DNA from: Moraxella nasicaprae
GTDB lineage: Bacteria; Pseudomonadota; Gammaproteobacteria; Pseudomonadales; Moraxellaceae
Length of the DNA: 32,000 nucleotides
Direction: 5' to 3'
NCBI RefSeq assembly: GCF_025643275.1
Contig: NZ_CP089977.1
Span: 1,710,001-1,742,000, forward strand
The notes below the pieces were generated by a model. That model made no database searches and was not told where the DNA came from. It was given only the letters and a program-made list of their open reading frames with translations. Positions within the stretch are counted from its first letter, which is position 1, and every line of letters starts with the position of its first letter. Made by a program: the position numbers and the translations under genes. Below are positions 1,920 to 26,174 of this stretch, piece by piece.

Positions 1920-1954
1920 GCGACTACTGCTCGGTAGTCGCTTTTGTTTTTTTT
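1920..1954 (+). terminator. Rho-independent terminator of ndk
   Basis: Stem GCGACTAC (1920-1927) pairs with GTAGTCGC (1934-1941) around a 6-nt loop. The run ttttgtttttttt follows. Confidence 0.8.
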
Positions 1955-1975
1955 AACACCATCATAAGGAAGTGT

Positions 1976-2956: not shown

Positions 2957-2962
2957 TTTTTT

Positions 2963-2991
2963 ATGACTTTCATACAAAAATTTAGTATAAT
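2963..2991 (+). promoter_or_regulatory. candidate sigma70 promoter for rlmN
   Basis: ATGACT (2963-2968), a 17-nt spacer, then TATAAT (2986-2991), about 33 nt upstream of the rlmN ATG. Confidence 0.35.
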
Positions 2992-3023
2992 AAGCCATTT
3001 TATTGCTATTTTTGATAATTTGT

Positions 3024-4238: not shown

Positions 4239-4266
4239 TTTGCCAAAGTGTGTAAAGGTTGCTAGA

Positions 4267-4917: not shown

Positions 4918-4970
4918 CGGCAATAAAAGTAAGATTTGCCATATTGTAATATTGATTGTTGGAAAATAAT

Positions 4971-6089: not shown

Positions 6090-6154
6090 GGGTGGATTTT
6101 GTGGAAAATCCATCAAGATGAAGAGCGACAAACACCCATAAGGATAGCGATGTA

Positions 6155-6859
6155 ATGAAATTTACAAAAATGATTGCAATGACCACGATTGCTGGCTTAA
6201 TGCTACAAGGCTGTGCGACCAGTTATCTAAACAGTAAAACGAGAGGTTCGGTCGAATCAGTTGAGCGTGATAATGTGCGTTATATGCTCAGTTATGTGTC
6301 GGCAAACGGTGTGCAAGATTCAAACTATATGGTCATTTTGGGCGATAAATATACTTATGAACTCGATGACAGAAATGCTGGCGGTAGAAAATTACAAGAT
6401 CTCAATAAAATCGGTCAAGTGCTGGATTTAAAGGCGTTTAAACCCAAACCAATTCGTTTTAAATTGGAAGATTCGTTTGGTGGAAGGATTGTGCCAGTCC
6501 ATTATGTGTTCTTTGAATTCTCTTATGACAAACAGGGTCAACCATTAAACGCAGGCGAAAAAGAATTTTTGAACCGTTATTGCTACACACATTTGCCCAA
6601 TCCGTACGGCAATTGCGAAATGAAATTTGAAATGAAAATGTACGCAAAAAGTACGATTCCCAATGCCAAATTACAGCCAGTCAAAGGCAATTATCCAATT
6701 GAAATCGTGAGTTATCACGATAATAAAGTTGCACGAACCGCATTAAAACCATTTGCTTTCGTCGCTGATGTGATTACCGCACCGATTCAGCTTGCGGCTG
6801 GGGCGTTGTTTATGGGCAGTATTGCAGTTGGTTGTGGTACAGGAGATGGTTGCCAATAA
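6155..6859 (+). CDS. hypothetical lipoprotein
   Basis: The signal peptide has a lipobox (MKFTKMIAMTTIAGLMLQG|C). The C-terminal stretch is hydrophobic and Gly/Cys-rich. No family recognised. Confidence 0.6.
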   Translation: MKFTKMIAMTTIAGLMLQGCATSYLNSKTRGSVESVERDNVRYMLSYVSANGVQDSNYMVILGDKYTYELDDRNAGGRKLQDLNKIGQVLDLKAFKPKPIRFKLEDSFGGRIVPVHYVFFEFSYDKQGQPLNAGEKEFLNRYCYTHLPNPYGNCEMKFEMKMYAKSTIPNAKLQPVKGNYPIEIVSYHDNKVARTALKPFAFVADVITAPIQLAAGALFMGSIAVGCGTGDGCQ

Positions 6860-6891
6860 TTTGATTTTGGTCTGACCCTTTTGGAATTGTG

Positions 6892-7770
6892 ATGATGAAT
6901 ATGCAAAAAATTGTCTTAGCCTTAGGAATGGTAACGGCTCTGTATGGCTGTTCATCAAACACGCAAAATAGTCCATCAACCCAAGATATGCCAAAAGACG
7001 ATGTGAATACACAAGCCATTATTAAACAGCGAAATCCTTATTTTTCTTGGGATTTAAAAGCTGGTGGTGCTGAAGATGCACCAGCCTTTTTAGGGCGTGT
7101 GGTGATGGAAAATCGCTGTTTATTGATTAAACATGATGATGGTCGATATTCAATTCCTGTATTTCCTGATAGTATCACGAGTTGGAATGAGCAAAAGCAA
7201 ATTTTAACGGTATATGATGATGAATATCGTCTAGGCGATTATATTTTTAGCAATTATCTGCGTCATGAACCTTATTCAACGCAAAAACAACATCAATTTA
7301 TCAAACAAGCCGATGCACAATGTTTACAAGAAGGGAGAAATATTGTCTATTTAGGGACGATGTTTAGTAAAAAGCTCGCTGTACCACAAGGCAATTATTT
7401 TGCTTATCCATTTGAAGATAAAGGGTTGCCAGAAATTCAACCTGCGAGTATGACTAAATTGGAAAATAAAAACGGCTGTTTGGGATTAAATGATGAGTAT
7501 TTAATCGTTTTTCCAAGTGGTGTTACGCATTGGGACGATAACAAACAAGCGTTAATCATTCGTGGATATGAATTTAAGGTGGGAGATGTTATTTTTTCAA
7601 ATGGGTTTGATGAAGTGGTCTATGATGAAAATCAGCCTTTTGAATTTGCACAAATTGCTCAACCTTATTGTCTAAAAGATGGTATGACTTTGCGTGTATT
7701 AAGAACGCAAATTAAAAAATTAAGTACCGATGAAATGAAACGCTTTGCTCCATATTTATTGGGTAAATAG
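6892..7770 (+). CDS. hypothetical lipoprotein with an internal tandem domain duplication
   Basis: Lipobox LALGMVTALYG|C. The two halves align: NRCLLIK..YSIPVFPDSITSWNEQKQILTVYDDEYRLGDYIFSN..QCLQEG with NGCLGLN..YLIVFPSGVTHWDDNKQALIIRGYEFKVGDVIFSN..YCLKDG. The start is ambiguous (GTG 6889, ATG 6892/6895/6901). Confidence 0.6.
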   Translation: MMNMQKIVLALGMVTALYGCSSNTQNSPSTQDMPKDDVNTQAIIKQRNPYFSWDLKAGGAEDAPAFLGRVVMENRCLLIKHDDGRYSIPVFPDSITSWNEQKQILTVYDDEYRLGDYIFSNYLRHEPYSTQKQHQFIKQADAQCLQEGRNIVYLGTMFSKKLAVPQGNYFAYPFEDKGLPEIQPASMTKLENKNGCLGLNDEYLIVFPSGVTHWDDNKQALIIRGYEFKVGDVIFSNGFDEVVYDENQPFEFAQIAQPYCLKDGMTLRVLRTQIKKLSTDEMKRFAPYLLGK

Positions 7771-7808
7771 TTTGATATACTAAAATGAATGTAATATAGG
7801 ATTTAAAA

Positions 7809-9089
7809 ATGAGTAAACTTACCGCCATTCGTGGCTTTAATGATATTTTGCCCACCGAAACCGCCAAGTGGCGTGCGGTGGAAACGATTTTAACCCAAGT
7901 GCTTGATGGCTACGGATATAGTCAGATTCGCCTACCTCTGGTGGAGGAGACTGAGCTGTTTGCTCGTGGCGTGGGCGAGGCGACCGACATTGTCGAAAAA
8001 GAGATGTTTGGCGTGGTGCATGGCAATCAAAATACAGGCAAGGACGAGAGTGAAAAGTCGTTCACACTACGCCCAGAGGGGACAGCAGGGTGCGTGCGTG
8101 CGGTCATCGAGCATAATTTGACACGAGGCGATACGCCAAAATTGTGGTATATCGGTCCGATGTTCCGCTACGAACGCCCACAAAAAGGTCGTTATCGTCA
8201 GTTCACCCAGCTTGGGGTGGAAAGTTTTGGTAGTGCCTTGCCTGATGCTGATGCCGAGCTGATTGCGATGACAGCTCGTATGTGGCAAGCATTGGGCATT
8301 GACCATGAGGTTAAATTGCAACTAAATACTTTGGGTGAGGCACATGAACGCTTGGCATATCGTCAGGCTTTGGTGTCATATCTGATTGCACACAAAGACC
8401 AGCTAGATGCCGATAGCCAGCGAAGACTGGATACCAATCCGCTACGAATTTTGGATTCCAAAGATGTCAAGACCCAAGAAATCTTGGCAAATGCACCAAA
8501 ACTAAATGAATTTTTGGGCGAAGAGACTTTGACGCATTTTCAAACCGTGCAGGATTATTTGACGGCATTGGGCATTTCATTTGAAATCAATGATAAGCTG
8601 GTGCGTGGTCTTGATTATTACAATAAAACCGTCTTTGAATGGGTGACTGATAAACTTGGCTCGCAAGCAACCGTGTGTGGCGGTGGTCGTTATGACGGTT
8701 TGGTGGGTATTTTAAAGGGCGATGCTGATAAATCCGAACCTGCGGTGGGCTTTGCCATGGGTCTAGAACGCCTCATGTTGTTGATTGAAGCGGTCAATCC
8801 AATGCAGGCACAGGCTGAATGCGATGTGTTTGTGGTTGCTCACCCAGAATGCTATTTGCACGGTTTGCAATATGCTGATAAACTGCGTCAGCACCGCCCA
8901 ACTTTGAGAGTAAAAATGGCATCAGCAGCCAGCCTAAAAGCTCAAATGAAAAAGGCGGATAAATCAGGTGCATCGCATACCATCATCATCGCTCATGATG
9001 AGGTGGCAAATCGTGTAGTTACACTAAAAACAATGGCAACAGGCGAGCAGGCAACCGTGCCAGCCGATGATTTTGATAAGATTAGCTAA
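7809..9089 (+). CDS. hisS: histidine--tRNA ligase
   Basis: 426 aa with class II motifs: [46 protein letters not shown] and GFAMGLERL. Confidence 0.97.
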
Positions 9090-9105
9090 TTATTTGGATA
9101 AGATA

Positions 9106-9936
9106 ATGACAACTCAAACCGATAATCAAAACGCAGATAAACAGTCAATGATGGCATTAAAAAAACATGGTAATACCATCTTGACGATTGTATTGGTGGT
9201 GCTGGCGGCTTATTTTGGCTGGCAATACTATCAAAATCATTATGCCAAAATTGATACCGTGGCGGCTGATGCTTATACAAACATCAGTAATACCAATGAG
9301 CAGTTGATAATGACTGCCCAAAATTCACAGCTGGACGAAGCTGCCAAAAAGAAACTTGTCGATGAAGAAAACAAGCTGTTTGCCCAAATCGATGATTTGG
9401 TGGCAAAGCATGGCGATACTACCTATGCGTGGCAAGGGTTGATGATGAAAGCTCGTCATCAGGTGGATAATAATGACCTAAAAGGAGCGATTGCTTCACT
9501 TCAAGAAGCCAGCAAGATTGAGCTTGATGATGGCTTGACGGCAATGACTAAGATTCGTCTGGCTCGTGTGATGCTGGCTGATGGCGATACAGAGAGTGCA
9601 TTTGCAACCGCCAATGAAGCATTGCCACAGGCGTTCGAGGCATCTCGTCAAGAGCTTTTGGGCGATATTTATCTTGCCAAAAACGAAGTGGATAACGCCA
9701 AAAAAGCCTATACATCAGCTTGGGAAGCCTTGCGAGCTCGTCAAGAAAACCGTGCAGTGCTTAGCCTAAAATTACAATCTTTGGGCGTGGTCGTTCAGCC
9801 GATTGAACCACCTGCTGCTGTGGTGGCGACTGTCAATACTGCCACAACTGATGCAGCACAAGCCACAGATGAGGCAACTAAGCAGCCTGCTGATGGTCAA
9901 GCAGATACAAAAACCCCACAAACAAGCAATCAATAA
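9106..9936 (+). CDS. yfgM: YfgM-like membrane-anchored TPR-like protein (UPF0070)
   Basis: ATG 9106. An N-terminal TM segment (ILTIVLVVLAAYFGWQYY) precedes a helical repeat region. The position between hisS and bamB is syntenic with yfgM. The C-terminal tail is low-complexity and Ala/Thr/Gln-rich. Confidence 0.65.
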   Translation: MTTQTDNQNADKQSMMALKKHGNTILTIVLVVLAAYFGWQYYQNHYAKIDTVAADAYTNISNTNEQLIMTAQNSQLDEAAKKKLVDEENKLFAQIDDLVAKHGDTTYAWQGLMMKARHQVDNNDLKGAIASLQEASKIELDDGLTAMTKIRLARVMLADGDTESAFATANEALPQAFEASRQELLGDIYLAKNEVDNAKKAYTSAWEALRARQENRAVLSLKLQSLGVVVQPIEPPAAVVATVNTATTDAAQATDEATKQPADGQADTKTPQTSNQ

Positions 9937-9990
9937 TCAGACATTTGCCATTACAATGATGATGTATCATCAACATAAAAAGGATATCGT

Positions 9991-11166
9991 ATGAATAAGC
10001 GTTTTGCAATGACCGCATTAGCAGGTGTGCTTGGTGCAATGATGTTGGCAGGTTGTGGCACAAAAGCCATCAAGCCAGATGATAGAAAACCAGCCAAATT
10101 GATTCCGATTTCAGCACCGATGACAGTGCTAACCCCTGTGTTTAGCACCAAGTTGGAGCAGGGTGGTTCAATCATTAAGCGTGGTAAGCATCACGGTAAA
10201 GATGTGGTGGATTTGCAAATTGCCCCAACTGCTGACGGATTGATTGCAGCCAGTCGTGGCGGTTCGGTTACTCGTTTTGTGGGTAATTCGCCTGCTTGGT
10301 CGGTCAATCTAAAACAGCCCATCACCAGTGCTGCCGCTATCGGTGGCGATGAATTGGTGGTTGTGGGTGCTCGTTCAGGCAATATCATTGCTTTGAATGC
10401 CAAGACAGGCGAGACGCTTTGGCAAACCGCTTTGCCATCAGCCAGTCTTGCTCCTGCATTGATTACTGGCAATCGAGTGATTGTCTCAACCAACAGCAAT
10501 GTGGTTTATGGACTTGATGCCAGCAATGGTGCGATTGCTTGGCAGTATTCAATCCAAGCCCCAACAGTCACGGTGCGTGGCATGGCAAAACCTTGGCAAT
10601 TAGATGCTCGCACGGCATTGGTTGGTGGTGCTGATGGTCGTGTTCACGCTTTGGATATTGCAAGTGGCACCCCTGTTTGGATGGGGCGTGTTGGTCTAGC
10701 GTCAGGCACTGGCGATGTGGCAAAACTGCGTGATGTCGATGGCGTACCAACCATGGCAGGCGATATTCTGTATGTAGCAAGCTATGGCGGTCAGTTGATG
10801 GGTTTTGACATGAGACAGGGTCAGCCGATTTTTGCCAGCAAACTTGCCAGTACAGGTTCAGTGGCAGCATTGGGTTCTTTGGTGATTGGGGCTAATATTG
10901 ATGGCGAGGTCATTGGTTTTAACCGTTTGACAGGCGAGCAAGTTTGGCAAAATGACGAACTAAAATTTCGTGGTCTGACCAATGCAGTCACAGTCGGTCA
11001 ATATGTGGCGATTGGCGATAAAGATGGTGTGATTCATCTGTTTGATGAAACGGGCAAAATCGTTAGTCGCTTGAACACTAAGCAGCCTTTGACCAGTTTG
11101 CAAGTGCATCAAAATCGCCTATACGCCCAAAGTACCAATGGCGTGGCGAATGTTTGGCAATTTTAA
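9991..11166 (+). CDS. bamB: outer membrane protein assembly factor BamB
   Basis: Lipobox MMLAG|C. Repeated beta-propeller (PQQ-like) blades are present (ALNAKTGETLWQ, GLDASNGAIAWQ, ALDIASGTPVW, GFNRLTGEQVWQ). The gene sits upstream of der, as expected from synteny. Confidence 0.9.
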   Translation: MNKRFAMTALAGVLGAMMLAGCGTKAIKPDDRKPAKLIPISAPMTVLTPVFSTKLEQGGSIIKRGKHHGKDVVDLQIAPTADGLIAASRGGSVTRFVGNSPAWSVNLKQPITSAAAIGGDELVVVGARSGNIIALNAKTGETLWQTALPSASLAPALITGNRVIVSTNSNVVYGLDASNGAIAWQYSIQAPTVTVRGMAKPWQLDARTALVGGADGRVHALDIASGTPVWMGRVGLASGTGDVAKLRDVDGVPTMAGDILYVASYGGQLMGFDMRQGQPIFASKLASTGSVAALGSLVIGANIDGEVIGFNRLTGEQVWQNDELKFRGLTNAVTVGQYVAIGDKDGVIHLFDETGKIVSRLNTKQPLTSLQVHQNRLYAQSTNGVANVWQF

Positions 11167-11187
11167 TCAGCCAACCTGACAAAAAAT

Positions 11188-11230
11188 TCCTTTGTCGTTC
11201 AATGAATGGCAAAGGATTTGCTGTTTTTTT
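11188..11230 (+). terminator. probable Rho-independent terminator after bamB
   Basis: tcctttgtc (11188-11196) pairs with ggcaaagga (11208-11216) with one mismatch. tttgctgttttttt follows. Confidence 0.5.
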
Positions 11231-11271
11231 ATTGATTATCCATCTGCCCCAAAAATTTTGAGAGTATTATC

Positions 11272-12687
11272 ATGAGTGTAAAGCCTGTCGTTGCCTTGAT
11301 TGGTCGTCCCAATGTTGGCAAATCCACTTTATTTAACCAGCTGACCAAGTCCCGACAAGCATTGGTGGCGGATTTGGCTGGTTTGACACGAGATCGTCAA
11401 TATGGCGATGCTACTTACGAAAATAAGTCTTTCATCGTGGTTGATACAGGTGGTATTGGCGAGATGGACGATGGGCGTGGCAATATTGATGATTATATGG
11501 CGACGCAGTCTTATACTGCCATTCATGAAGCGGACATCATTGTTTTTGTGGTTGATGCTCGTGTGGGTATGATTGGGGCGGATAGTGAAATCGCCAAATT
11601 TTTGCACACTTTGGGTAAGCCTGTCTATCTGGTGGCAAACAAAATGGACGGTGTGCATGAGGCGGCGTCGGCAGAATTTTTTGCGTTGGGATTTGGCGAA
11701 CCATTTCCGATGGCAGCAAGTCATGGCAAGGGTGTGAATAATTTACTGGAAGTTTTGACCGACAAGATGTCAGAAGATGACAGCGAGGAGCTGGATAATG
11801 ATGCCCTAAAACTTGCCATCATTGGCAGACCTAATGTGGGCAAATCAACTTTGGTCAATCGCTTGCTTGGCGAAGAGCGTGTGGTGGTGTTTGATATGCC
11901 TGGCACGACAAGGGATAGTATCTACATTCCTTTTGAGCGAGAGGAGCGTCAGTATGTGCTGATTGACACCGCAGGCGTGCGTCGTCGTGGCCGCATTGAT
12001 GAAAAAGTAGAAAAGTTCTCTGTTGTCAAAACTTTGCAAGCCATCAAAGATGCGAATGTGGTCGTGGTGGTGATTGATGCCAAAGAGGGTATTGTCGATC
12101 AGGATTTGCACATGCTTGGCTATGCACTGGACGCAGGTCGTGCCATTGTGGTGGCGATTAACAAATGGGACGGTCTAACCCAAGAACAAAAAGACATTGT
12201 CAAGATTGAGATTGACCGTCGTTTTAATTTTGTGCCATGGGTAAAGATTCATCTGATTTCTGCCTTGTATGGCAATGGCGTGGGCAACTTATACCCTTCT
12301 ATTCATAAGGCGTATGATGCGTCAATGTTTAAAGTTTCTACCAGTCGCCTGACTAGAATCTTAGAAGATGCGGTGGTCAATCACCCACCGCCCATGGTTG
12401 GTGGTCGCCGAATCAAACTAAGATATGCTCATCTAGGTGGGCATAATCCACCTGTGATTGTCATCCATGGTAATCAGACGCAAGCACTGCCCAAAAGCTA
12501 TCAAAGATATTTGGAAAACATTTATCGTGATGTGTTTAAACTTGAAGGTACGCCTTTGCATGTCGAGTTTAAGCAAAATGCCAACCCTTATGAAGGTAAA
12601 AAGAATCCAAAAGTCAAAAATAAAGCCAAAGCAATGCGAGATAAAAAACGCATTGCTCAGTTCAAAAAACGAGAGAAAAAGCGTTAA
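11272..12687 (+). CDS. der: ribosome-associated GTPase Der (EngA), tandem GTPase domains
   Basis: Two G domains (GRPNVGKST appears twice; DTGG/DTAG; NKMD/NKWD), followed by a KH-like domain and a Lys-rich C-terminal tail. Confidence 0.97.
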
Positions 12688-12777
12688 AAGTGGCTTGATG
12701 GCTTTTTGGTGATTTTAAGCAAAGCGGCATTTACCATGTCATGGTTGATGTCGTTTTTATTTTGATGAGAAAAAATA

Positions 12778-16174: not shown

Positions 16175-16224
16175 AAAAAAGCCAAATATTTTACGCAAAA
16201 AAGCATAAAATACTTGGCTTTTAT
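16175..16224. terminator. bidirectional terminator-like hairpin flanked by an A-run and a T-run
   Basis: gccaaatatttta (16181-16193) pairs with taaaatacttggc (16205-16217), a 13-bp stem with one mismatch. aaaaaa lies 5' and ttttatt lies 3'. The 3' arm contains the -35 of the cassette A promoter. Confidence 0.5.
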
Positions 16225-16241
16225 TATACACTAGTGTATAA
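16213..16241 (+). promoter_or_regulatory. sigma70 promoter of cassette A with an operator-like palindrome
   Basis: TTGGCT (16213-16218), a 17-nt spacer, then TATAAT (16236-16241). The perfect 18-bp palindrome ttatacactagtgtataa (16223-16240) overlaps the spacer and the -10. Confidence 0.6.
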
Positions 16242-16329
16242 TATACACAACTTGGCAAGAATGGCAGTTCTTGACTAAGGAAGCCCCCAACAAGATGTTG
16301 GGATTTTATCAACCAACAAGGAGAACGAC

Positions 16330-16446
16330 AATGCGTAACATTGTGAAAATCGCCATTATCGTTTTGCTTTGCCTGCTTTTAAAATCAAGCGGCAACTAAT
16401 AAGCAAACAAGCTGGTTCAAGGAAGAGCCAGCCCCTTGTTACCTGA
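16330..16446 (+). CDS. small hydrophobic peptide ORF of cassette A (type-I-toxin-like)
   Basis: AAGGAG (16317-16322) lies 7 nt before ATG 16330. The N-terminus is MRNIVKIAIIVLLCLL. By my count the frame runs 39 codons to TGA 16444-16446, with tail KIKRQLISKQAGSRKSQPLVT. The frame passes a T/A homopolymer junction at about 16376-16384 that I could not count with full confidence. One base fewer would give a 22-aa peptide ...LLLKSSGN* ending near 16398, colinear with cassette B. Confidence 0.4.
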
Positions 16447-16447
16447 T

Positions 16448-16476
16448 ACTTTAACCCATTTTTCAAGGAAAATCAA
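16448..16476 (-). promoter_or_regulatory. candidate antisense promoter of cassette A
   Basis: The minus strand reads TTGATT (16476-16471), a 17-nt spacer, then TAAAGT (16453-16448). The -35 sits 1 nt from the RHH start codon. Cassette B has the same geometry. Confidence 0.4.
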
Positions 16477-16477
16477 G

Positions 16478-16675
16478 ATGCCATCAATGACGCAAGCTCA
16501 ACATAAAGCAAAAAGCTCATACCGTGCCAAATCACTTAAAAACATGAGTTTGCAATTTAGCCAGCACGACAAAGAAGCCTATGAGGCATTATGCCAGCTT
16601 GAAGCGGTGTACGGCTCGGCAAGTGGGGCAATTAAACAGGCATTGATTGCACACGCCAAACAGTTGCAAAACTAA
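16478..16675 (+). CDS. ribbon-helix-helix (CopG/Arc-like) protein, cassette A
   Basis: AAGGAA lies 8 nt upstream of ATG 16478. The 65-aa product is MPSMTQAQHKAKSSYRAKSLKNMSLQFSQHDKEAYEALCQLEAVYGSASGAIKQALIAHAKQLQN, with a beta-strand then helix-helix pattern. It aligns by eye with the cassette B RHH (TxAQxxAxS...KxxSxxF). Confidence 0.6.
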   Translation: MPSMTQAQHKAKSSYRAKSLKNMSLQFSQHDKEAYEALCQLEAVYGSASGAIKQALIAHAKQLQN

Positions 16676-18399: not shown

Positions 18400-19122
18400 T
18401 TAGGCATTTTCATACGCCCGAGCGAGCTTATTATGATAATCAAACTTGGCATAAGCCACGCCATTATACACTTTGGCAATCGCTTGCCAGTCTTTGCGTT
18501 TCATCGCACCGCCAAGCCCTGCCGACTTTAAAAAGCCAATCGTTGCTTGCAATTGGGCTTTTTCGCTGTCATACATGGCATTGATAAAGCCTTGTAAGTT
18601 GTCAAATCCTGCCAGCTTGTGATTAAAGACCATAATCTGCCCCAGTCCCCACGAACACGCCTTTAACGCACATTCACGCACTTTGGCTTGCAAATTTTCG
18701 TCCGCATCTGGTCGCACCTTTAACAATAAATCTTGGGCATTTTGCAATCTTTGATGTTGAATGTTCTCGCCCCCTCGTTGACTGGCAGCACCTGTGTTGG
18801 GAATTTCAGGTTTTGGCATCAAAAATGCCACGGCAAGCGACACGTCCACAGAGATAGCCACCACCGCCAAAAGCGGTAAGGCGGCAGATGGATAGGTCAC
18901 CAAATAAAACCGCCCAGTTAGGCGGTTTAGATGGTCAATATCAGCATCAGACTTGGGCGTAACATCGCACGCACTGTCCCACTTGTCATGATACAGATAG
19001 GTGTTAAGCGGTAAGCCTTTAGGGTAGATTCTTTGGACGATTTCAAAAAGATTATCGCCAACAAAATCTGTCTGCTTGTCAGGCTCAAAGGCGTTATTGA
19101 TGACGGTTACAATCAAGCTCAT
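18400..19122 (-). CDS. chimeric ORF: lambda gpI-like tail assembly N-terminus fused to the C-terminal part of an N-acetylmuramidase (endolysin) domain
   Basis: The N-terminal ~115 aa (…RFYLVTYPSAALPLLAVVAISVDVSLAVAFLMPKPEIPN) have gpI-like layout: a ubiquitin-like part, a hydrophobic stretch, then LAPKxxxP. The C-terminal ~100 aa, CSWGLGQIMVFNHKLAGF...MYDSEKAQLQATIGFLKS...KDWQAIAKVYNGVAYAKFDYHNKLARAYE, match the SWGLFQIMGFNH...SE..QL.AF...W..FA..YNGP.Y..N.YD.KLA.AY signature. The N-terminal catalytic half of that domain is absent. Confidence 0.55.
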   Translation of the reverse strand: MSLIVTVINNAFEPDKQTDFVGDNLFEIVQRIYPKGLPLNTYLYHDKWDSACDVTPKSDADIDHLNRLTGRFYLVTYPSAALPLLAVVAISVDVSLAVAFLMPKPEIPNTGAASQRGGENIQHQRLQNAQDLLLKVRPDADENLQAKVRECALKACSWGLGQIMVFNHKLAGFDNLQGFINAMYDSEKAQLQATIGFLKSAGLGGAMKRKDWQAIAKVYNGVAYAKFDYHNKLARAYENA

Positions 19123-19486: not shown

Positions 19487-20308
19487 TTAACTGCAGGGTT
19501 TAATCACCCTAAAGATGGCGATGGGTGTAATGCCATAACTGCTAGAAGCTCGACCCATCATTTCTTTTAAAGAGGCTGCCATCGCAAATAATGAATTACG
19601 CCACTCACTATCAGTAGGGATGGTTTCATCGTCATTAGGGATGGCGTCAAGTACACCTAAAACATAGTACTTACCATGCATCAAACTTCCATGTTTTAGG
19701 TTAATATCATGTGGATTACCAACCATCTCATCACGATTTAATGTCATCCATACAGAGCAGCCATCAACAAATAATGTTGCTTCTAGTGCATAAGGTATGG
19801 CTTTAATCAAATCAATTAAATTCTTGTTCTCGTTATTGGCTTGCTGGATTTTCTTGCTTCTGCCTTTAAGAGGTAGCCGATGATCAATTTGGCTGAGAGA
19901 CTCCTGAATCAAAACAGGCCCTATCATATCTTTTATGGTGTTAACATCAGTAATGCTGAGCTTGCCTTGTATTAATACTAACTTTCCTGCCGAATGCTCG
20001 GATAGTTCTCTTTCAATAAACCCCAATTCATCAAGTTTATCAATCATCTCTCGAGGCATGGTAGGGATGGCATCATATAGCTTTTCATTAGCCCTCAGCT
20101 CAGATGAGCCATAAGCGTGCTTGCCATTAAAAGTAGAGGGGATGCCTAAGCTTCCCTCAGTATGCCTAGTATGATTGCTGTTATTATTCTCTTTGATGCT
20201 GGTCAAAGAACCAAATCCAGTTAATTGAGCATAAAAAGATTTGATTTTCGTATTATCCAAATACAAAAAGTCAAAGATTGATTCTATGTTTTGTGATTCT
20301 TGCACCAT
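19487..20308 (-). CDS. hypothetical protein (273 aa), orphan accessory gene
   Basis: A long open frame in a visibly AT-richer segment. The product is MVQESQNIESIFDFLYLDNTKIKSFYAQLTG...GITPIAIFRVIKPCS. I recognise no motifs and see no TM segments. A terminator follows immediately. Confidence 0.7.
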   Translation of the reverse strand: MVQESQNIESIFDFLYLDNTKIKSFYAQLTGFGSLTSIKENNNSNHTRHTEGSLGIPSTFNGKHAYGSSELRANEKLYDAIPTMPREMIDKLDELGFIERELSEHSAGKLVLIQGKLSITDVNTIKDMIGPVLIQESLSQIDHRLPLKGRSKKIQQANNENKNLIDLIKAIPYALEATLFVDGCSVWMTLNRDEMVGNPHDINLKHGSLMHGKYYVLGVLDAIPNDDETIPTDSEWRNSLFAMAASLKEMMGRASSSYGITPIAIFRVIKPCS

Positions 20309-20456
20309 TATTTAAATTCTCTTGCACTTTCTTTCTTTCTTCATTGTATCTTTTGGCTTCTTGATGCATCAATCTACCCAATGTATCAAAAGCGGACTCA
20401 ATCCTTTTTGCGGCATTTTGAGTTGATGGTGTATGATATGCTGTGTGATTATGCAT
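20271..20456 (-). CDS. small helical protein (61 aa), first gene of the orphan operon
   Basis: A strong SD AAGGAGGGG lies about 7 nt upstream of ATG 20456. The product is MHNHTAYHTPSTQNAAKRIESAFDTLGRLMHQEAKRYNEERKKVQENL.... The 3' end overlaps the start of the 273-aa ORF by 38 nt. Confidence 0.5.
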   Translation of the reverse strand: MHNHTAYHTPSTQNAAKRIESAFDTLGRLMHQEAKRYNEERKKVQENLNNGARITKHRINL

Positions 20457-20735
20457 AACTCTACCCCTCCTTTTGGGTCAATAAAAGCCAAGCAAAACGA
20501 CAAATTTCACTTGACTTGTTGTAGAATATTGATGTTCACGGTAGTGCATGAACCAGCATAAAAATGAAAGAATTTCAAGCTAAAACTGACTTGTTAAGGT
20601 ATATTAGCATATCCACATTCTATTTTAAACCCCATGTTGAACAAATAATACGCACGGTTACAAAATTATTCTGTCAGCTCAATAGCAAAAAAGCCAAATA
20701 ATCACAACAATTTTATACAAAATTGCAATAATTAC

Positions 20736-20764
20736 TTGACTTTTAGTGTAGTATTTACTATAAT
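20736..20764 (+). promoter_or_regulatory. near-consensus sigma70 promoter of cassette B
   Basis: TTGACT (20736-20741), a 17-nt spacer, then TATAAT (20759-20764). It shares acTTGnCTTTTA and the heptamer TAGTGTA with the cassette A promoter. Confidence 0.7.
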
Positions 20765-20857
20765 ATGCTTATCAAGACAAGGTGCTGCAACACCAAGTCT
20801 TGATAGGTTACCCGCCACCGACCTGCTTGAGTGGTGGCGACCTTAGGAGATAAGACA

Positions 20858-20923
20858 ATGAAAGCAGTCGTAAAGCTAATCATCATTGTTATCCTGCTAC
20901 TACTAAGCAACAACGCTTACTAA
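20858..20923 (+). CDS. small hydrophobic peptide ORF of cassette B (21 aa, type-I-toxin-like)
   Basis: TTAGGAG (20843-20849) lies 8 nt before ATG 20858. The peptide is MKAVVKLIIIVILLLLSNNAY*. It parallels the cassette A peptide N-terminus (M+xxVKxxIIVxLxLL). Confidence 0.5.
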   Translation: MKAVVKLIIIVILLLLSNNAY

Positions 20924-20990
20924 CGGCAGGTAGCCTGTAAAGGCTGGGGCGGTGGGCAAGCACACCGCTTCACTCCTAAAACTTGTGATT

Positions 20991-21019
20991 ATCTTACCAA
21001 GAATGTAAGGATTTGTCAA
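20991..21019 (-). promoter_or_regulatory. candidate antisense promoter of cassette B
   Basis: The minus strand reads TTGACA (21019-21014), a 17-nt spacer, then TAAGAT (20996-20991). The -35 abuts the RHH ATG at 21020. The predicted transcript runs antisense into the peptide ORF region. Confidence 0.45.
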
Positions 21020-21226
21020 ATGCCTAAGATTGTCAAAACGCCCAAAACCAAAGCTCAAATCCAAGCCGATTCTGATGCCAAGCGTGGCGTCAAGGTGGCA
21101 AGTTATAAATTTCCTGTAGAGTTTATTGACGAGCTTGCCAGCTTGTCCGAGCAGACAGGGCTTTCACGCTCTGCTATTATTATGGCAGCGGTACAGCTTT
21201 GGGCAAACTCACAAAAATCCCCTTAA
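21020..21226 (+). CDS. ribbon-helix-helix (CopG-like) protein, cassette B
   Basis: 68 aa: MPKIVKTPKTKAQIQADSDAKRGVKVASYKFPVEFIDELASLSEQTGLSRSAIIMAAVQLW. The beta-strand KVASYKFP is followed by helix, G.SRS and helix, as in classic RHH proteins. The 3' end overlaps the convergent tail gene by 18 nt. Confidence 0.7.
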   Translation: MPKIVKTPKTKAQIQADSDAKRGVKVASYKFPVEFIDELASLSEQTGLSRSAIIMAAVQLWANSQKSP

Positions 21227-21715
21227 AGTCGGATAATCCGCCAAAGTGTATTTAATGCCCGTAGAAGTCTTATTGACCTCTTTGGCTTTGCAAGTAAATA
21301 CCGCTCCTTGTCTTTGAGGGGTGTTGTCGGTGATTTCCAGCCCCAATGCAGACACGATGGGCGAGGATAAATCACTGCTTAGATACACCCGATAATTGAC
21401 CGTGGGGCGTGTGGTGGCGTGTTTACCATTTCTTAGTCGGTCAATCTCATAAGGCATGACATCGCCTACATCGCCAATGCCGATGGTAAATGACTGCTCC
21501 AAGCTATCCGTTGATGATGACGGCTTGATGGTCAAGGGCAGATACTCATAATTGTAGTAAGTGCCGTTTTCGTGCCTTACACGCACGCCATCGGTATGAT
21601 TTCGCACAAAGCGATACGCACGGCTAAAGCTGGGGTGCGTAATCTCAATACACTCCAAGCGAACATCATCATGCCGACCAACGAGCCAGTAGTATTTTTC
21701 TGCATCTGTTGCCAT
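21209..21715 (-). CDS. phage distal tail protein, DUF1833-like (occupies the gpL position)
   Basis: 168 aa. ECIEITHPSFSRAYRFVRN...FTIGIGDVGDVM resembles my recollection of DUF1833. It is the second gene after the tape measure, and its start is coupled to the upstream stop (ATGA-type overlap at 21715). Confidence 0.5.
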   Translation of the reverse strand: MATDAEKYYWLVGRHDDVRLECIEITHPSFSRAYRFVRNHTDGVRVRHENGTYYNYEYLPLTIKPSSSTDSLEQSFTIGIGDVGDVMPYEIDRLRNGKHATTRPTVNYRVYLSSDLSSPIVSALGLEITDNTPQRQGAVFTCKAKEVNKTSTGIKYTLADYPTLRGFL

Positions 21716-22194
21716 TAAGTTCTCCGAATTTTGGGCAAGTCTGCATTCACGAGCTTTTCAAGCTGATTAAAATACGCATCTTGTTCTTCTCTTTTCATCG
21801 AATAAAGCAGGGCGATGAGTTCGTCTTGACCGACATTGACAGGGCGTGGCTTGACAACAAGCGTTAATTTGGCAGTAAAAATCTGGTTGCCCAGCGTGCT
21901 GACATTGATTTGTTCATCTGTGTAACGGCACTCATACCAGTGGTGGTCAATGTCATCTAAGAGCAGATACGCCATAAACGCACGCCCAGCGTTGGCACGC
22001 AAAAAAGAGAGCATATACTGCCACATTGGCCGAGTGCATTTATAGGTTACTGACAGATGATGTACCACGCCTACCTGTGAGCGTCTTTGGCGTGGCATTC
22101 CTGCCTGTGTTTGAGTGCTGACCACGCCAGTACTTAGGGCAAAGCCATAGCCAGAGCGATGCGGCTTTAACATGAACTTAGGCAAATCACTCAT
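21715..22194 (-). CDS. phage distal tail protein (gpM position), family unrecognised
   Basis: 159 aa. It lies immediately downstream of the tape measure, with 4-nt overlaps at both ends. Confidence 0.5.
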   Translation of the reverse strand: MSDLPKFMLKPHRSGYGFALSTGVVSTQTQAGMPRQRRSQVGVVHHLSVTYKCTRPMWQYMLSFLRANAGRAFMAYLLLDDIDHHWYECRYTDEQINVSTLGNQIFTAKLTLVVKPRPVNVGQDELIALLYSMKREEQDAYFNQLEKLVNADLPKIRRT

Positions 22195-25100
22195 AGCTTA
22201 CGCTCCAAATTGTAGTTGTTTTTTAGTGCTTTGTTAAAGCCACTGTAAGGGTCATTGACCTGCTGAGGCAGTTGGCGTGCCAGCTCTTGACCGACAATGA
22301 TGCGAATGTCGCCATTACTGTCGGTGGTCTGCTGTACTTTCTCGCCCGTGTGATTGTGGATAATCACATTGATAGCTTTGCCATTACCCATACTTGCCAA
22401 TTTATCATCTAAGGCTTTGGCGGTGTGCTTAGGTAGCACTCGTTCGCCTTTTTCTAAGTTCCAAGTGCCTGATTTTGGCACGGACATGATACCGTCATGG
22501 GCTTGACCGACAACAGGATTTTTGACCGCTCGAATATTGCTGATGATACTGGCTGTTTGTGCTGCAACACTTGCCATTGCTCCAATGTTCATCGGGAATG
22601 GGTTGGCAGCGGCAAAGGCAATCGCTTGCTGGATTGCCATGATTGAGCGGGCGATTGCGACACCTTTTTCGACGGCAAACATCGCACGATAGACTTTGGA
22701 CTGCTCACCAAACATGGACTTGGTCGCACCAGCCAGACCACTTGCGATGCCTTCTGCTGAGCTTAATGTTAGCTCACGCTTGGCGGCTTCATGGGCGGCT
22801 TTTAGGTCGTATTCCTGTTTGTCGTAGTCAGCATTGATGTCTAGCTGAGCTTGACGAGCTTGGCGGATAATGTCTAGCTGTTCTTGATACTGTTTATCAA
22901 GACTTGCCATGCCCGAGATGCCACTTGCCAACGCATTACCAGCACCTTCCAACCCTGTACCGCTAAATGTTGGCAAAGTGAACGCTTTGCCTGCCTTAAG
23001 TCCTTCTTGCAGCTTACCAAACTTATCAGCAATCATGCCTTGATTTTCGATATCTAGCAGGGCTTGCTGTTGCTCTGGACTCATGCCTGACTGTGATAAC
23101 TGCCATTTCTTCTCAGCAAGTGGGTCGCTTGCATTTTTAAGCATATACAGCTTTTTGGCAAGCTCAAGCTGAGCTTCGGCTTGCTTGGTTTCAAATAGCT
23201 TAAGCTGGGCTTGCTCCACCAAGCCGTCTTTGAGTGTTTGCGTGATGTGCAGATACTCTTTTTCGGTGGCGAGCTTGTGCTTGAGTAGGTCAATCTCATT
23301 CTTGCCGATTGCTGACCGCTCGTTAATGACCTTTTTAATATCATTTTCGACAAATTGGCGATTGGCAAGGGCGATATTGGCGTTCTTATAAGTGTCAAAC
23401 ACTTCACGGGTAATGGCAAGATACTTATCCGTGTTTTCGTACTCCCACTCCATAATCTCAATGTTTGACTTGCCGACTAGGGCGATATCTTGCTTGAGTT
23501 TACGCAAGTTGTCGATCATGCTGAGTATGCCACCCAGTCGTTGCTCTTCTTCTTTGAGTGCCAGTAATTGAGCGGTGTCCTGACCTTGATACTTGCCAAA
23601 GGCGATATCAGTGGTCAGCTCGGCAAAGGGATTGCCCGCAATTTTTTGCTGAGTAATAAAGATTGAGCGTGACAGTGACTCCATCTCAGATTCGACAGCT
23701 TTTTTGGTGTTTTCGGCCATCTTTTTGGCTTCATCAGCTGCCATTGGTGCTTTGTAGGCGATGCCAATCGCCATACCTTCCGACACCCATTCACCAATCT
23801 GTTTCATGACTCGAGAAGGGGAGTTGATGTCGAAAAAGCTCGTCACGGCATTCTTCATGCGACTTGCCATCTCACGCACTTTTGCCACAGCACCTTCGAT
23901 TTTGCTGCTGATACCGTTAATCAAACCTTGCACGATTTCAGTGCCCGCTTGACGCAGTCGTCCGCCAATGCTAGTGATGGCACTGACCATCTGACCCATG
24001 GCGTTGCGAGCGATACCGCCAAGCTGTGACAGACCGCTTTGGATAGCGGTTTTGACGCCGTTAATATCGCCACGCACCAATGCCTTGATGGCGTTAAATA
24101 TAGTCGATACAACGGTTTTTACGGCGTTAAAGCCTGCATTAAAGATAATCGCAAAGCCTGTCACACCGGCTGTCAATACTGCCTTGGCACCATTGATACC
24201 TGCTGATACGGCTGCTTTTACACCGTTCCAGACACTTTGAGCCACACTTACCAAGCCATTCCAAGCACTTGAAAAAAAGCTTGCAACGCTTGTGATAATT
24301 GGCTTAATGGCATTGATGGCAGACGCTACAGCAGATTTGACGCTGTTCCAGACGCTTGTTGCGACTGACACAATGCCTTGCCAAGCTGACGATACCGCTG
24401 ATGACAAGCCTTGCCATACCGCCACCACAGCACTAAATGCCGTCTTGGCAACAGCGGTGATGCCAGCCCATGCAGTACTTGCAATGGTTGCAATACCACT
24501 AAAGATACTGCCAATGTTCGCCACCATCTCTTGCACGGGTGCTGGCATACCGCTAAGCCAACCAAAGAATGCTTGCTTAACGCCATCAATGGCGGTACTG
24601 ACAGCGGACTTTACACTTTCCCAAATACCGCCAAACCACTCACCAATACCACTCCACACGCCTTGAATCCATTGCCATGCTTGGCTTGCATACTCAGGAA
24701 TGGCATTCCACACTTCTATCGCTTTGGCTTTGACCATATCCCAGTTGTTATACAGCCAAACGCCTGCCACAACAAGGGCAGCAATCGCCGCAACCACCGC
24801 CACAACAGGCAAACTAATCGCACCGATGGCCGTGCCCACAAGTCCTGCAATGGCAGTCAAACCACCGAGTGCCGTTGTGACAAGCGGCACAGCCAAGCCA
24901 ATTGCACCCAGTGCCGTGCCAAGCACAAGCACACCACCGACAATGCCTGTGATGGCAGTGACCATCGTCGGATTTTCTTGGGCGAATTGCTTGATGCCAT
25001 TGATGACTGGCAATAATGCTTCTGCCAATGCACCAAGTGCAGGCAAAAACGCATCGCCGATGGCGGCTTTGGCGTTTTGCGTAGCGTTCTTAAACATCTC

Positions 25101-26174
25101 CATTTTGGCAGCAGATGTATCGTTGATATTTGCCGCTTCTTGGCTCATTGAGCCTGCGTATTTTGACGCATCGCCCATCGCCTGCAAATGCTTACCGAGT
25201 GTATCAGTGCCGTTAATCAGCTGTGAGATGACAGCGATAGACTCACTGCCAAAGATATCGTTAATTGTAGCGGCTTGTGCTTCTTCGGGTAGCTTTTTGA
25301 TGGCTTCAAAGACTTTGTTAATCGTGCCAATGCTGTCTGTCTGCATACCTTTGGCAATCTCGGTATAAGACAAGCCAAGGTCGTCAAATGCGGCTTTGGC
25401 AGATTTTGACAGACTTTCGCCCTTGACCAATTGCAGCATCATGTTTTTTAGACCAGTGGCTGCCACATCTGGCTCAACTGATGTCAAGCTTGCCGCCATT
25501 GCTGCGATTTGGTCAGCTGATACGCCGGCAATCTCACCAAGCGGACCGATACGCTGTACCACTTCCATGATTTTGGCGGCAGCGTTGGGTGAGTTGTTGC
25601 CAAGATAGTTAATTTTGTCCGCCAGTGTTTCAACTTCTGCCTGCGACATTTTAAAAGCAGTACGCATTTCTGCCATTGCCTGCCCCGCTTCTTCGGCAGT
25701 AATGTCAAATGCCGTGCCCATTTTTGCAGCAGCTTCGGTGAATTTGACGATTTCGTTAGCGGCAATGCCTGACTGACCAGCTGCAGCAGCGATTTTGGCA
25801 AGTCCATCAAAGGCAATAGGCACTCGAGTGGATAACTCTTCGAGCTCAGCACGCATCTGTTTGATGCCGTCTGGTGACTCAAAATTAACCACTTTTTTGA
25901 CCTCAGCCATTGCTGATTCAAATTTCATTGCTTCATCGGTGGTCGCCTTAATACCTGCACCGATTGCCACCAAACCGACAGCAGACGCTGCACCGATGGC
26001 TTGCATGGCATCAAATGCACCTTGATGGCGTTTTTGAAAACTCTCCATTTTGGCGTGGATTTTGTCCGTTTGCTTGGCAAAGGCATTGAGTCCATCTTGA
26101 GCTTTTCGCAAGCCACGATCAAATGCCGTCGTGGTCGCTTCAAGCACAATTTGTAATTTTGATACGGTTGACAT
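22191..26174 (-). CDS. phage tail tape measure protein
   Basis: 1327 aa. The N-terminal core is TMP-like (AMKFESAMAEVKKVV...IAAAAGQSGIAANEIVKFTEAAAKMGTAFDI). A hydrophobic block spans residues ~403-475. A Trp-punctuated Ala/Ser/Val repeat array spans ~476-720. A long coiled coil follows, and the C-terminus is lambda-H-like (HDGIMSVPKSGTWNLEKGERVLP). Confidence 0.92.
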   Translation of the reverse strand: MSTVSKLQIVLEATTTAFDRGLRKAQDGLNAFAKQTDKIHAKMESFQKRHQGAFDAMQAIGAASAVGLVAIGAGIKATTDEAMKFESAMAEVKKVVNFESPDGIKQMRAELEELSTRVPIAFDGLAKIAAAAGQSGIAANEIVKFTEAAAKMGTAFDITAEEAGQAMAEMRTAFKMSQAEVETLADKINYLGNNSPNAAAKIMEVVQRIGPLGEIAGVSADQIAAMAASLTSVEPDVAATGLKNMMLQLVKGESLSKSAKAAFDDLGLSYTEIAKGMQTDSIGTINKVFEAIKKLPEEAQAATINDIFGSESIAVISQLINGTDTLGKHLQAMGDASKYAGSMSQEAANINDTSAAKMEMFKNATQNAKAAIGDAFLPALGALAEALLPVINGIKQFAQENPTMVTAITGIVGGVLVLGTALGAIGLAVPLVTTALGGLTAIAGLVGTAIGAISLPVVAVVAAIAALVVAGVWLYNNWDMVKAKAIEVWNAIPEYASQAWQWIQGVWSGIGEWFGGIWESVKSAVSTAIDGVKQAFFGWLSGMPAPVQEMVANIGSIFSGIATIASTAWAGITAVAKTAFSAVVAVWQGLSSAVSSAWQGIVSVATSVWNSVKSAVASAINAIKPIITSVASFFSSAWNGLVSVAQSVWNGVKAAVSAGINGAKAVLTAGVTGFAIIFNAGFNAVKTVVSTIFNAIKALVRGDINGVKTAIQSGLSQLGGIARNAMGQMVSAITSIGGRLRQAGTEIVQGLINGISSKIEGAVAKVREMASRMKNAVTSFFDINSPSRVMKQIGEWVSEGMAIGIAYKAPMAADEAKKMAENTKKAVESEMESLSRSIFITQQKIAGNPFAELTTDIAFGKYQGQDTAQLLALKEEEQRLGGILSMIDNLRKLKQDIALVGKSNIEIMEWEYENTDKYLAITREVFDTYKNANIALANRQFVENDIKKVINERSAIGKNEIDLLKHKLATEKEYLHITQTLKDGLVEQAQLKLFETKQAEAQLELAKKLYMLKNASDPLAEKKWQLSQSGMSPEQQQALLDIENQGMIADKFGKLQEGLKAGKAFTLPTFSGTGLEGAGNALASGISGMASLDKQYQEQLDIIRQARQAQLDINADYDKQEYDLKAAHEAAKRELTLSSAEGIASGLAGATKSMFGEQSKVYRAMFAVEKGVAIARSIMAIQQAIAFAAANPFPMNIGAMASVAAQTASIISNIRAVKNPVVGQAHDGIMSVPKSGTWNLEKGERVLPKHTAKALDDKLASMGNGKAINVIIHNHTGEKVQQTTDSNGDIRIIVGQELARQLPQQVNDPYSGFNKALKNNYNLERKL

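Follow-up and report, generated by a model that had tools for sequence, protein, structure and literature searches.

Within a 32,000-nt stretch of the Moraxella nasicaprae chromosome (NZ_CP089977.1, 1,710,001-1,742,000, forward strand; the window in what follows), the late region of a prophage carries on its plus strand, convergent with the tail genes, a compact cassette that encodes a 21-residue hydrophobic peptide and, downstream of it, a 68-residue ribbon-helix-helix (RHH) protein (Table 1). We consider that this cassette is probably a prophage-borne type I toxin-antitoxin (TA) module of the Ibs/Sib kind, extended by an RHH autorepressor that is co-transcribed with the toxin. The sequence and its comparison with relatives contribute coding constraint on the peptide, a shared RNA architecture, the placement of an antisense promoter and terminator, the linkage of toxin and RHH genes, and the RHH fold. 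All parts listed in a preliminary description of this DNA are present where it placed them, namely the promoter, two leader hairpins, the Shine-Dalgarno sequence (SD), the 21-codon open reading frame (ORF), two later hairpins, the SD complement CTCCTAA (the anti-SD), the minus-strand promoter and the 68-residue ORF.

Type I TA systems are taught as pairs of a peptide and an RNA, and a dedicated autoregulatory protein counts as a hallmark of type II systems. The window would thus hold a member of a recognised type I family with a conserved third part, an RHH gene with apparently cognate operators, which occurs in Moraxella and in Pasteurellaceae such as Histophilus and is apparently undescribed. 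In the literature searched (the supplementary lists of T1TAdb lay outside the search), we found no account linking a type I toxin, Ibs in particular, to a co-encoded RHH protein, and the earlier suggestion that type I hallmarks together with an RHH gene form an undescribed arrangement has therefore held up. The type I reading itself gains comparative support, although the families then named were hok/sok, tisB/istR and zor/orz and the nearest one, Ibs/Sib, was missed. If the RHH protein does repress the toxin promoter, control of a single toxin by both RNA and protein becomes testable, the coexistence of several near-identical cassettes in one genome would be explained, and compact, orthogonal promoter, repressor and antisense parts would become available. 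The family also flags unannotated genes for predicted toxic peptides in prophages of the human pathogen M. catarrhalis, including phage Mcat28, and of cattle pathogens.

The peptide and its messenger RNA

Over 28 distinct 21-codon ORFs, the peptide follows the profile M-K-x-x-x-K-(hydrophobic)10-S-x-[PN]-A-Y, with a hydrophobic core of 10-12 residues of the single-transmembrane type. The median ratio between the non-synonymous and the synonymous substitution rate (dN/dS) in this set is 0.31, with 98% of pairs below 1 and a pooled ratio of the corresponding polymorphisms (pN/pS) of 0.49; the ORF is therefore really coding and under purifying selection. Against the Pfam family Ibs_toxin (PF13956), the window peptide scores 22.3 bits (E = 1.2e-4), below the gathering score of 27, and the other Moraxella variants score 10-21 bits, also sub-threshold, with all rival matches weak (E ≥ 0.13). 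A relative from Histophilus somni, MNPRLIIILIILLVISQSAY, reaches 28.1 bits and so passes the Pfam cut-off. Since the window peptide is sub-threshold while this relative passes, the peptide is best labelled Ibs-like, a distant relative. A search of NCBIfam with the peptides gave no match. The Ibs peptides of E. coli (Fozo et al. 2008; PMC4147584) are likewise hydrophobic, 18-21 residues long, and end in ...S-x-[PS]-[AT]-Y.

The minimum free energy (MFE) fold of 20771-21019 has an energy of -90.9 kcal/mol (z = -5.1); the leader hairpins H1 and H2 form in it, and a helix between SD and anti-SD encloses the ORF. MFE folds pair the two in 15 of 17 diverged lineages, with the common plan present in all 17. 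For 13 window-type sequences, RNAalifold gives seven elements, which are the hairpins H1 and H2, the SD/anti-SD helix, one hairpin each at the start and the stop codon, and two 3' hairpins, and from their alignment a covariance model, R1, was built. MAFFT with RNAalifold over all cassette types failed, the alignment not being structure-aware, and alignment to the covariance model was used instead. R1 finds other cassette types over their full length (Mcat28 at 60 bits, the MLRLT class at 45, H. somni units at 45 and 41) and does not detect the window's second cassette, cassette A, or locus L023 (...KSSGN/KSSS peptide type). In the resulting 28-sequence alignment, 92.0% of cells pair, as against 74.5% in shuffles (0 of 500 reach 92.0%) and 23-51% in slid controls, the pairing figures being somewhat inflated by the fit of the alignment to the model's own structure. 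Double-sided changes occur in 51 of its 64 pairs, including 10 of 10 in helices 1-2 (H1), where 96-98% of cells are paired. In helix 5, the SD/anti-SD helix, all six pairs covary and 98% of cells are paired. An independent, anchor-based table has T:A exchanging with A:T at helix position -2 and GGAA SDs met by TTCC anti-SDs, and the ratio of G·U to A·C on the sense strand is 139:48.

The preliminary description had called the seven-nucleotide SD/anti-SD match unlikely by chance. This was overstated, as in about 5% of shuffles the 20-nt SD window finds a complement of 7 nt or longer in the 96 nt that follow the stop codon. The single-locus statistic is weak, and the real support for the pairing is comparative: the covariation check then proposed came out in favour of the helix, and the same architecture is found in dozens of diverged cassettes. 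The architecture of SD/anti-SD helix, stop-codon hairpin and 3' hairpin is shared with E. coli ibsC/sibC, where the helix is AAGGGU/ACCCUU and the Sib start also lies beside the anti-SD. R1 aligns ibsC in register over the whole span from SD to anti-SD, if weakly (9.8 bits, E = 0.003 in 700 nt). By contrast, E. coli ibsC has neither an RHH gene downstream nor a palindrome at its promoter.

A short ORF in a structured leader, with a regulator gene downstream and no terminator between the two, might also be read as a regulatory leader peptide, not a toxin, which would mediate attenuation or coupling of the RHH gene and for which the hairpins would be the attenuator. We regard this as highly improbable. 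First of all, it is the amino-acid sequence that is conserved, as the dN/dS value indicates, and its profile is of the Ibs type with a relative above the Pfam cut-off. Second, cassettes without RHH exist, and no alternative terminator/antiterminator pair is evident. Finally, a conserved antisense promoter with a dedicated terminator is unexpected for an attenuator.

The antisense promoter and terminator

As in E. coli Ibs/Sib, the type I module proposed here has an antisense promoter just 3' of the ORF, from which a transcript over the whole ORF and the ribosome-binding site (RBS) is predicted. Between the stop codon and the RHH start, the best minus-strand match to a σ70 promoter averages 9.5 of 12 positions over 45 distinct cassettes, compared with 7.3 in shuffles. 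The offset of the -35 from the RHH ATG is 0 to -10 nt in 38 of these 45, a TG-extended -10 is common, and the hexamers vary by lineage (TTGACA/TAAGAT, TTGACC/TATGAT, TTGATT/TATGAT, TTGACT/TAATAT); in Histophilus the antisense -35 lies inside RHH codons 2-4. At three loci (L007, L018, L021), an insertion of ~85 nt separates the -35 from the ATG; it starts with a duplicated ATGCC, holds a 23-codon ORF (MPSTLAGIIKLSLDLIIVSKYRI) and looks like a recombination scar. The abutment of -35 and ATG, emphasised earlier, thus holds in the main cassette and frequently elsewhere but is dispensable, as the variable distance, the Histophilus arrangement and these insertions make plain.

At the other end, a conserved motif upstream of the sense promoter, AAAAAGCCAAATAAT, pairs with the -35 region. 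The hairpin so formed has an energy of -24.9 kcal/mol on the minus strand (z = -6.4) as opposed to -8.4 on the plus strand (z = -0.7) and was found in 18 of 18 lineages examined. Its alignment has a 16-bp stem with five compensatory (inner) pairs and a U6-7 tail, and the U·G and G·U pairs of the minus strand are A·C mismatches on the plus strand. The minus-strand-specific fold and the U tail therefore argue for an intrinsic terminator of minus-strand RNA and predict an antisense RNA from ~20984 to ~20687. The conserved promoter and terminator bracket the ORF, the RBS and the 5' untranslated region (UTR), and the predicted RNA of ~300 nt would extend over the anti-SD, ORF and SD as well as the whole 5' UTR and the sense promoter; its predicted fold has z = -6.7. 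The length of ~100-250 nt proposed earlier is accordingly revised to ~300 nt, the RNA being expected to finish at the conserved terminator, part of which coincides with the sense -35. In H. somni, this role falls to a bidirectional, GC-rich terminator that lies upstream of each promoter.

The Rfam model SIB_RNA (RF00113) matches the minus strand at 20849-21036, the right strand and place, with 18 bits (E 0.29-1.1) against a gathering score of 56 bits, and the score is owed largely to the complement of the ...AY-stop codons and to a TTGACA. Sib RNAs cover the whole ORF and RBS, and RNase III is involved (PMC4147584). They are ~140 nt long and end at a hairpin just upstream of the SD, whereas the RNA predicted here is ~300 nt long with its terminator at the sense -35; H2 occupies the position of the SibC terminator and has no U tail. 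Unlike E. coli Ibs/Sib, the window locus lies in a prophage and below the Pfam and Rfam cut-offs.

Both window cassettes converge on late genes, with 3' overlaps and no terminator, and a metagenomic phage-like locus, L103, does likewise. The minus-strand terminator might thus serve to halt read-through from the convergent tail operon, in which case the promoter match would be incidental, no dedicated antitoxin RNA would exist, and the toxin would be checked by SD sequestration and the RHH protein only. This seems to us very unlikely, because the position of the antisense promoter is conserved despite differing hexamers and spacers, often with a TG-extended -10, because the promoter is also present in H. 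somni tandem arrays that have no convergent late operon, and because the layout matches that of E. coli SibC. On the Sib-like antisense RNA that we favour, a 24-residue ORF starting with GTG (20963-20889) behind an SD-like TTAGGAG was considered and rejected, being absent as a conserved ORF from type 2 cassettes (sequences read by eye). The SD of the RHH gene (TAAGGA, 21008-21012) can pair with TCTTAC (20992-20997), the complement of the antisense -10, and the inverted repeat CTTAC-N7-GTAAG is kept in window-type cassettes; this pairing may make RHH translation dependent on the state of the antisense-promoter region.

The RHH protein, its linkage to the toxin and a candidate operator

The 68-residue protein matches PHROG 3887, 'transcriptional regulator', with E = 7e-21, as well as PHROG 7325, and scores 16.5 bits against Pfam RHH_1, below the cut-off of 20.5. 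Its AlphaFold2 (AF2) model, with a mean predicted local distance difference test score (pLDDT) of 90, is extended at residues 25-31 and helical at 33-46 and 50-66, and has the β-α-α fold of RHH proteins. The top structure found by Foldseek in the PDB is DNA-bound CopG, 1ea4 (probability 0.98, TM-score 0.83, root-mean-square deviation 1.1 Å), followed by CdbA, Arc and ParD2, and a profile search of the PDB gave EndoAI and CopG. No ORF for a protein toxin, the partner expected in a type II TA, accompanies the RHH gene, whose 3' end overlaps the convergent tail gene.

We found 28 RHH homologues, all with an organism name being from Moraxella. A small hydrophobic ORF, that is, a peptide cassette, lies upstream in 19 of 19 IMG/VR loci found via the RHH gene, and an intact peptide cassette accompanies it in 16 of 21 genome loci found in the same way; two genome loci have RHH fragments only, and L028 has an intact RHH gene without the cassette. 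In M. lincolnii (L019 and L034), both genes are decayed, with an insertion in the peptide ORF and the RHH protein cut to 33 residues. In Faucicola mancuniensis (L041), only residues 24-66 of the RHH protein remain, with a transposase-like sequence, CPNCKVSHDRDVNASLNIL, immediately upstream and a peptide cassette ~2 kb further upstream (R1 match 709-938). Starting from the peptide, a scan of IMG/VR for the codon patterns ...LLLSxPAY-stop and ...SNNAY-stop gave ~64 distinct cassettes, nearly all with a small ORF 62-114 nt downstream that belongs either to the MPKIV... RHH family or to a second family (...ALVISHTEP...AIKxALVEYA). Such a cassette is present in phage Mcat28 (KR093652), whose annotation omits the peptide.

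The linkage extends to H. somni, where one locus (L066) consists of four tandem units of Ibs peptide, RHH gene and bidirectional terminator. The RHH protein there is a clear homologue of that in the window, with the common motif SDAKRGIKLKAFKL, and L103 has the same Ibs peptide and RHH unit. The Pasteurellaceae loci resemble the window cassette in their homologous RHH gene, the -10 palindrome and the antisense promoter at the RHH start, and they differ in their tandem arrays, in GC-rich bidirectional terminators in place of the one overlapping the -35, and in peptides of 19-20 residues. The linkage of peptide and RHH gene, at first noticed in this one locus, is thus a conserved arrangement, with peptide-RHH pairs in Moraxella and in Pasteurellaceae such as Histophilus. 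At the H. somni locus (reverse strand, 1237-2953), the units are split by near-identical terminators (AAAAAAACCGCACCCCAAAAGTGCGGT followed by a T run), and one RHH gene is interrupted at an A8 run, by a frameshift or by an error in sequencing. Fozo et al. 2010 (PMC2887945) described seven Ibs genes in H. somnus 2336 and made no mention of RHH, on which the Ibs review literature consulted is likewise silent. Kumar et al. 2012 found Ibs-like and HSM_0870-like small ORFs of H. somni 2336 expressed (260019-261007) by RNA sequencing that was not strand-specific, also with no mention of RHH.

Between the peptide ORF and the RHH gene of the main cassette there is no hairpin with a U run that resembles a terminator, and the terminators of H. 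somni all come after the RHH gene; toxin and RHH gene are thus likely to be co-transcribed. The palindrome TAGTAttTACTA over the sense -10 is unique in the window and lies at the cassette's own promoter. Its variants elsewhere, TAGTTTAAACTA, TAGTTATAACTA, TAGGTTtAACCTA and TTAGTTAACTAA, remain palindromic, and each goes with one class of RHH β-strand across different toxin classes. The mean palindrome arm is 5.4 nt compared with 4.0 in shuffles, individual cases being weak in AT-rich DNA. RHH proteins with the β-strand KVASYKF accompany TAGTATTTACTA and toxins ending in SNNAY, SYPAY, SYPVY, KSSS or TPAW; KPIGFKV accompanies TAGTTTAAACTA and SNNAY; KHIGFKV accompanies TAGTTATAACTA and two toxin classes; and KLKAFKL accompanies TAGGTT(T/C)AACCTA and three toxin classes in Moraxella, and TTAGTTAACTAA or TTAGTTATCTAA in Pasteurellaceae-type loci. 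The second protein family goes with TTGTAT-N6-ATACAA, and the cassette A protein with ATACACTAGTGTAT and a toxin ending in KSSGN. Set side by side, the operator versions for the classes VASYKF, PIGFKV and KAFKL and for the cassette A protein are TAGTATTTACTA, TAGTTTAAACTA, TAGGTTTAACCTA and ATACACTAGTGTAT. The operator class therefore tracks the RHH β-strand class, across 3-5 toxin classes, and not the toxin class, even though the toxin gene sits between promoter and RHH gene, which argues for a cognate operator-repressor pair. The RHH protein would thus repress its own cassette through the -10 palindrome, a candidate operator.

The type I toxin and its antisense RNA could also be real while the RHH gene is independent phage cargo that regulates other genes, with the palindrome bound by another factor or by none. 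We consider this unlikely. The RHH protein does belong to a phage 'transcriptional regulator' family, some cassettes have no RHH gene and one RHH gene (L028) has no cassette, and the palindromes are weak one by one. The linkage is, however, tight and fixed in position over two bacterial families, with at least two protein families in the slot; the operator class varies with the β-strand class of the RHH protein, not with the class of the adjacent toxin; the palindrome occurs in the window only at the cassette's own promoter; and peptide and RHH decay together in M. lincolnii.

Several points weigh against the reading of an Ibs/Sib-like module with a dedicated RHH autorepressor. From the evidence given we infer the transcripts, the toxicity, the binding of the RHH protein to its operator and the role, be it prophage addiction or abortive infection. 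The window locus falls short of the gathering scores of both Ibs_toxin (27 bits) and SIB_RNA (56 bits). The single-locus SD statistic and the self-fitted covariation alignment carry the limits given above, and duplex energies are alike for cognate and non-cognate SD/anti-SD combinations (-12.2 vs -11.9 kcal/mol), so the pairing is not lineage-specific and SD sequestration is generic rather than lineage-matched. The terminator stem is AT-rich and could also deal with transcripts that read through from the convergent tail operon. In a few cases (L099, L055/L078) the cassette has no downstream gene, and the RHH protein is therefore not essential for holding the toxin in check. As for the operator, L012/L027 are an exception that pairs KVASYKF with a KPIGFKV-type element, in the KNKAFTL class a direct repeat, TAGGCTAGGC, stands in place of the palindrome, and the co-variation of operator and RHH could come from recombination breakpoints.

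More than one cassette may occur in a genome. The loci of Moraxella sp. ZJ142 (L025, L028, L031-L033), together with L030, L033 and L036, indicate that at least five per genome are possible, and some cassettes lie adjacent or in tandem, for example in L033 (positions 2316, 2718) and L036 (positions 2731, 3332). The differing operator and RHH classes among co-resident cassettes suggest diversification against cross-talk.

Proposed control and genomic setting

Taken together, these features suggest how the Ibs/Sib-like module with its RHH autorepressor would work. Transcription from the promoter at 20736 would give an mRNA that begins with hairpin H1, followed by H2. Its SD would be locked to the anti-SD ~50 nt past the stop codon, and the full-length mRNA would therefore be poorly translated into the 21-residue membrane peptide. 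Because no terminator follows the peptide ORF, the mRNA would continue into the RHH gene with its separate SD. The promoter in the spacer would fire backwards and yield an antisense RNA of ~300 nt against anti-SD, ORF, SD, 5' UTR and sense promoter, and this RNA would stop at the terminator that holds the complement of the sense -35 in its stem. By analogy with Sib, the antisense RNA should block translation and bring about cleavage of the toxin part, sparing the RHH cistron, and an RHH dimer on the -10 palindrome would cap transcription of both toxin and RHH. More tentatively, the cassette could be a hybrid of three layers, in which an Ibs-class toxin is held by an antitoxin split between the long cis-antisense RNA and the RHH protein encoded on the toxin mRNA, and in which diversification of operator and RHH insulates co-resident cassettes. 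Losing either labile part, through prophage loss or host shut-off by a phage, might then free the peptide, and the terminator embedded in the promoter might make sense and antisense transcription exclusive, as in a bistable switch.

Each element of this scheme has counterparts in known systems. In hok/sok and aapA1/isoA1, a long-range helix likewise hides the SD and keeps the toxin mRNA inert, and a cis-antisense RNA is the antitoxin; their peptide families are different, they have no gene for a protein regulator, and the window cassette has no mok-like overlapping leader ORF. The antisense RNA of hok/sok lies 5' of the ORF, unlike here. In tisB/istR-1, dinQ/agrB and symE/symR, a protein represses transcription of the type I toxin on top of the control by the RNA antitoxin, but it is the global LexA, encoded elsewhere, whereas the putative repressor here has a dedicated gene on the toxin's transcript. 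Type II TA systems with RHH antitoxins (ParD, CopG-like, RelB) share an RHH protein encoded with the toxin and presumed to autorepress through a promoter palindrome; in the window, on the other hand, the toxin gene comes first, the antitoxin would be an RNA, and nothing indicates that the RHH protein binds the peptide or neutralises it. An example of a type I toxin on a polycistronic prophage mRNA is yonT, of yonT-yoyJ/SR6 in SPβ. The HicB-like orphan antitoxins of M. catarrhalis prophages (PMC4619438) were considered as well and, by their description, seem to be different genes.

The cassette lies between tail genes and a muramidase gene, beside accessory genes of unknown function, and the targets of Ibs peptides are only now being defined (bioRxiv 2025.05.26.656083); the peptide might thus be a membrane factor of benefit to the phage, in superinfection exclusion or lysis timing, and not a self-toxin. 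We give this very little credence, because cassettes occur at varied positions, several per genome and in tandem arrays, and because three silencing layers fit a harmful product. The 3' ends of the downstream genes overlap those of the convergent phage genes by 18 nt (21209-21226) in the main cassette, 4 nt (16672-16675) in cassette A and 20 nt (1670-1689) in L103, with no terminator between them in any of the three, and late phage transcription would therefore cross the whole cassette in antisense.

Table 1. Features of the main cassette, of cassette A and of the neighbouring phage genes (window positions)
Feature	Position	Strand	Remarks
Main cassette
Intrinsic terminator for minus-strand transcripts	20687-20744	-	5' arm is the complement of the sense -35 and flanks (AAAAGUCAAGUAAU...), 3' arm AUUAUUUGGCUUUU, then U run
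Predicted cis-antisense RNA (Sib-like antitoxin), ~300 nt	20687-20984	-	predicted from conserved promoter and conserved terminator
Sense promoter TTGACT-17-TATAAT, toxin-RHH transcript	20736-20764	+	11/12 consensus matches; same place in all cassettes
Palindrome TAGTAttTACTA over sense -10	20749-20760		candidate RHH operator
Hairpin H1, predicted 5' end of toxin mRNA	20771-20804	+	fold and covariation
Hairpin H2, immediately 5' of SD	20805-20843	+	core CGCCACC...GGTGGCG 20813-20839; fold; helix 4, 6/7 pairs covary
Toxin SD TTAGGAG	20843-20849	+	5' strand of closing helix
Ibs-like toxin ORF MKAVVKLIIIVILLLLSNNAY	20858-20923	+	21 residues and stop
Two post-ORF hairpins, AGCCT/AGGCT and GGGGCGGTG/CACCGCTTC	20932-20971	+	helices 11-12, 14/14 pairs covary; no U run after
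Anti-SD CTCCTAA	20973-20979	+	3' strand of closing helix; 5-12 nt downstream of predicted antisense start
Antisense promoter TTGACA-17-TAAGAT	21019-20991	-	TG-extended -10; 10/12 matches; predicted start near 20984
RHH protein, 68 residues, WP_263076032.1	21020-21226	+	own SD AAGGA at 21008-21012; 3' end overlaps convergent tail gene by 18 nt
Cassette A
Minus-strand terminator overlapping the -35	16177-16222	-
Promoter TTGGCT-17-TATAAT with perfect 14-bp palindrome ATACACTAGTGTAT	16226-16239 (palindrome)
SD AACAAGG			pairs with CCUUGUU
Peptide MRNIVKIAIIVLLCLLLKSSGN	16331-16399		two leader hairpins upstream
Antisense promoter TTGATT-17-TAAAGT
65-residue protein WP_263076027.1	16478-16675		second family
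Neighbouring phage genes
Muramidase gene	18400-19122	-	minus-strand prophage region, with accessory genes of unknown function alongside
Minor tail gene	21209-21715	-	PHROG 396
Structural gene	21715-22194	-
Tape-measure gene	22191-26174	-

The second cassette, of the same design, occupies 16214-16675 and is presumably the one that the preliminary description meant by cassette A. Its RNA folds to the plan of the main cassette (z = -3.9). The protein of the second family compares only weakly with the RHH profile in hhalign (E = 0.0016, probability 16%), a sequence search of the PDB with the family gave no match, and the AF2 model of the cassette A protein is poor (pLDDT 68); this family is thus a possible RHH family.

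Exact protein matches in the window are the Der GTPase (WP_263076021.1) and the 68-residue protein. Positions 1-12700 carry plus-strand ORFs, including the host Der GTPase gene (11272-12687), and the minus-strand phage-type genes start somewhere beyond. At gathering thresholds, Rfam gave no match in the window, a scan for tRNA and tmRNA genes found none, a BLAST search of plasmids gave no match, and PADLOC found no defence system in the RHH gene and its neighbours. The sole match in a BLAST search of phages is 58 nt long, lies upstream of the promoter and is to Mcat28 and Mcat5; inspection of Mcat28 led to its diverged cassette. Beside the main cassette, at 19487-20456 on the minus strand, lies a gene pair of unknown function, of which one product (273 residues) has DUF6414 and matches PHROG 9699 (E = 2e-83). 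A 61-residue ORF overlapping that gene matches PHROG 15141, and the pair has no PADLOC match; the two may be further accessory (moron) genes at a hot spot between tail and lysis genes.

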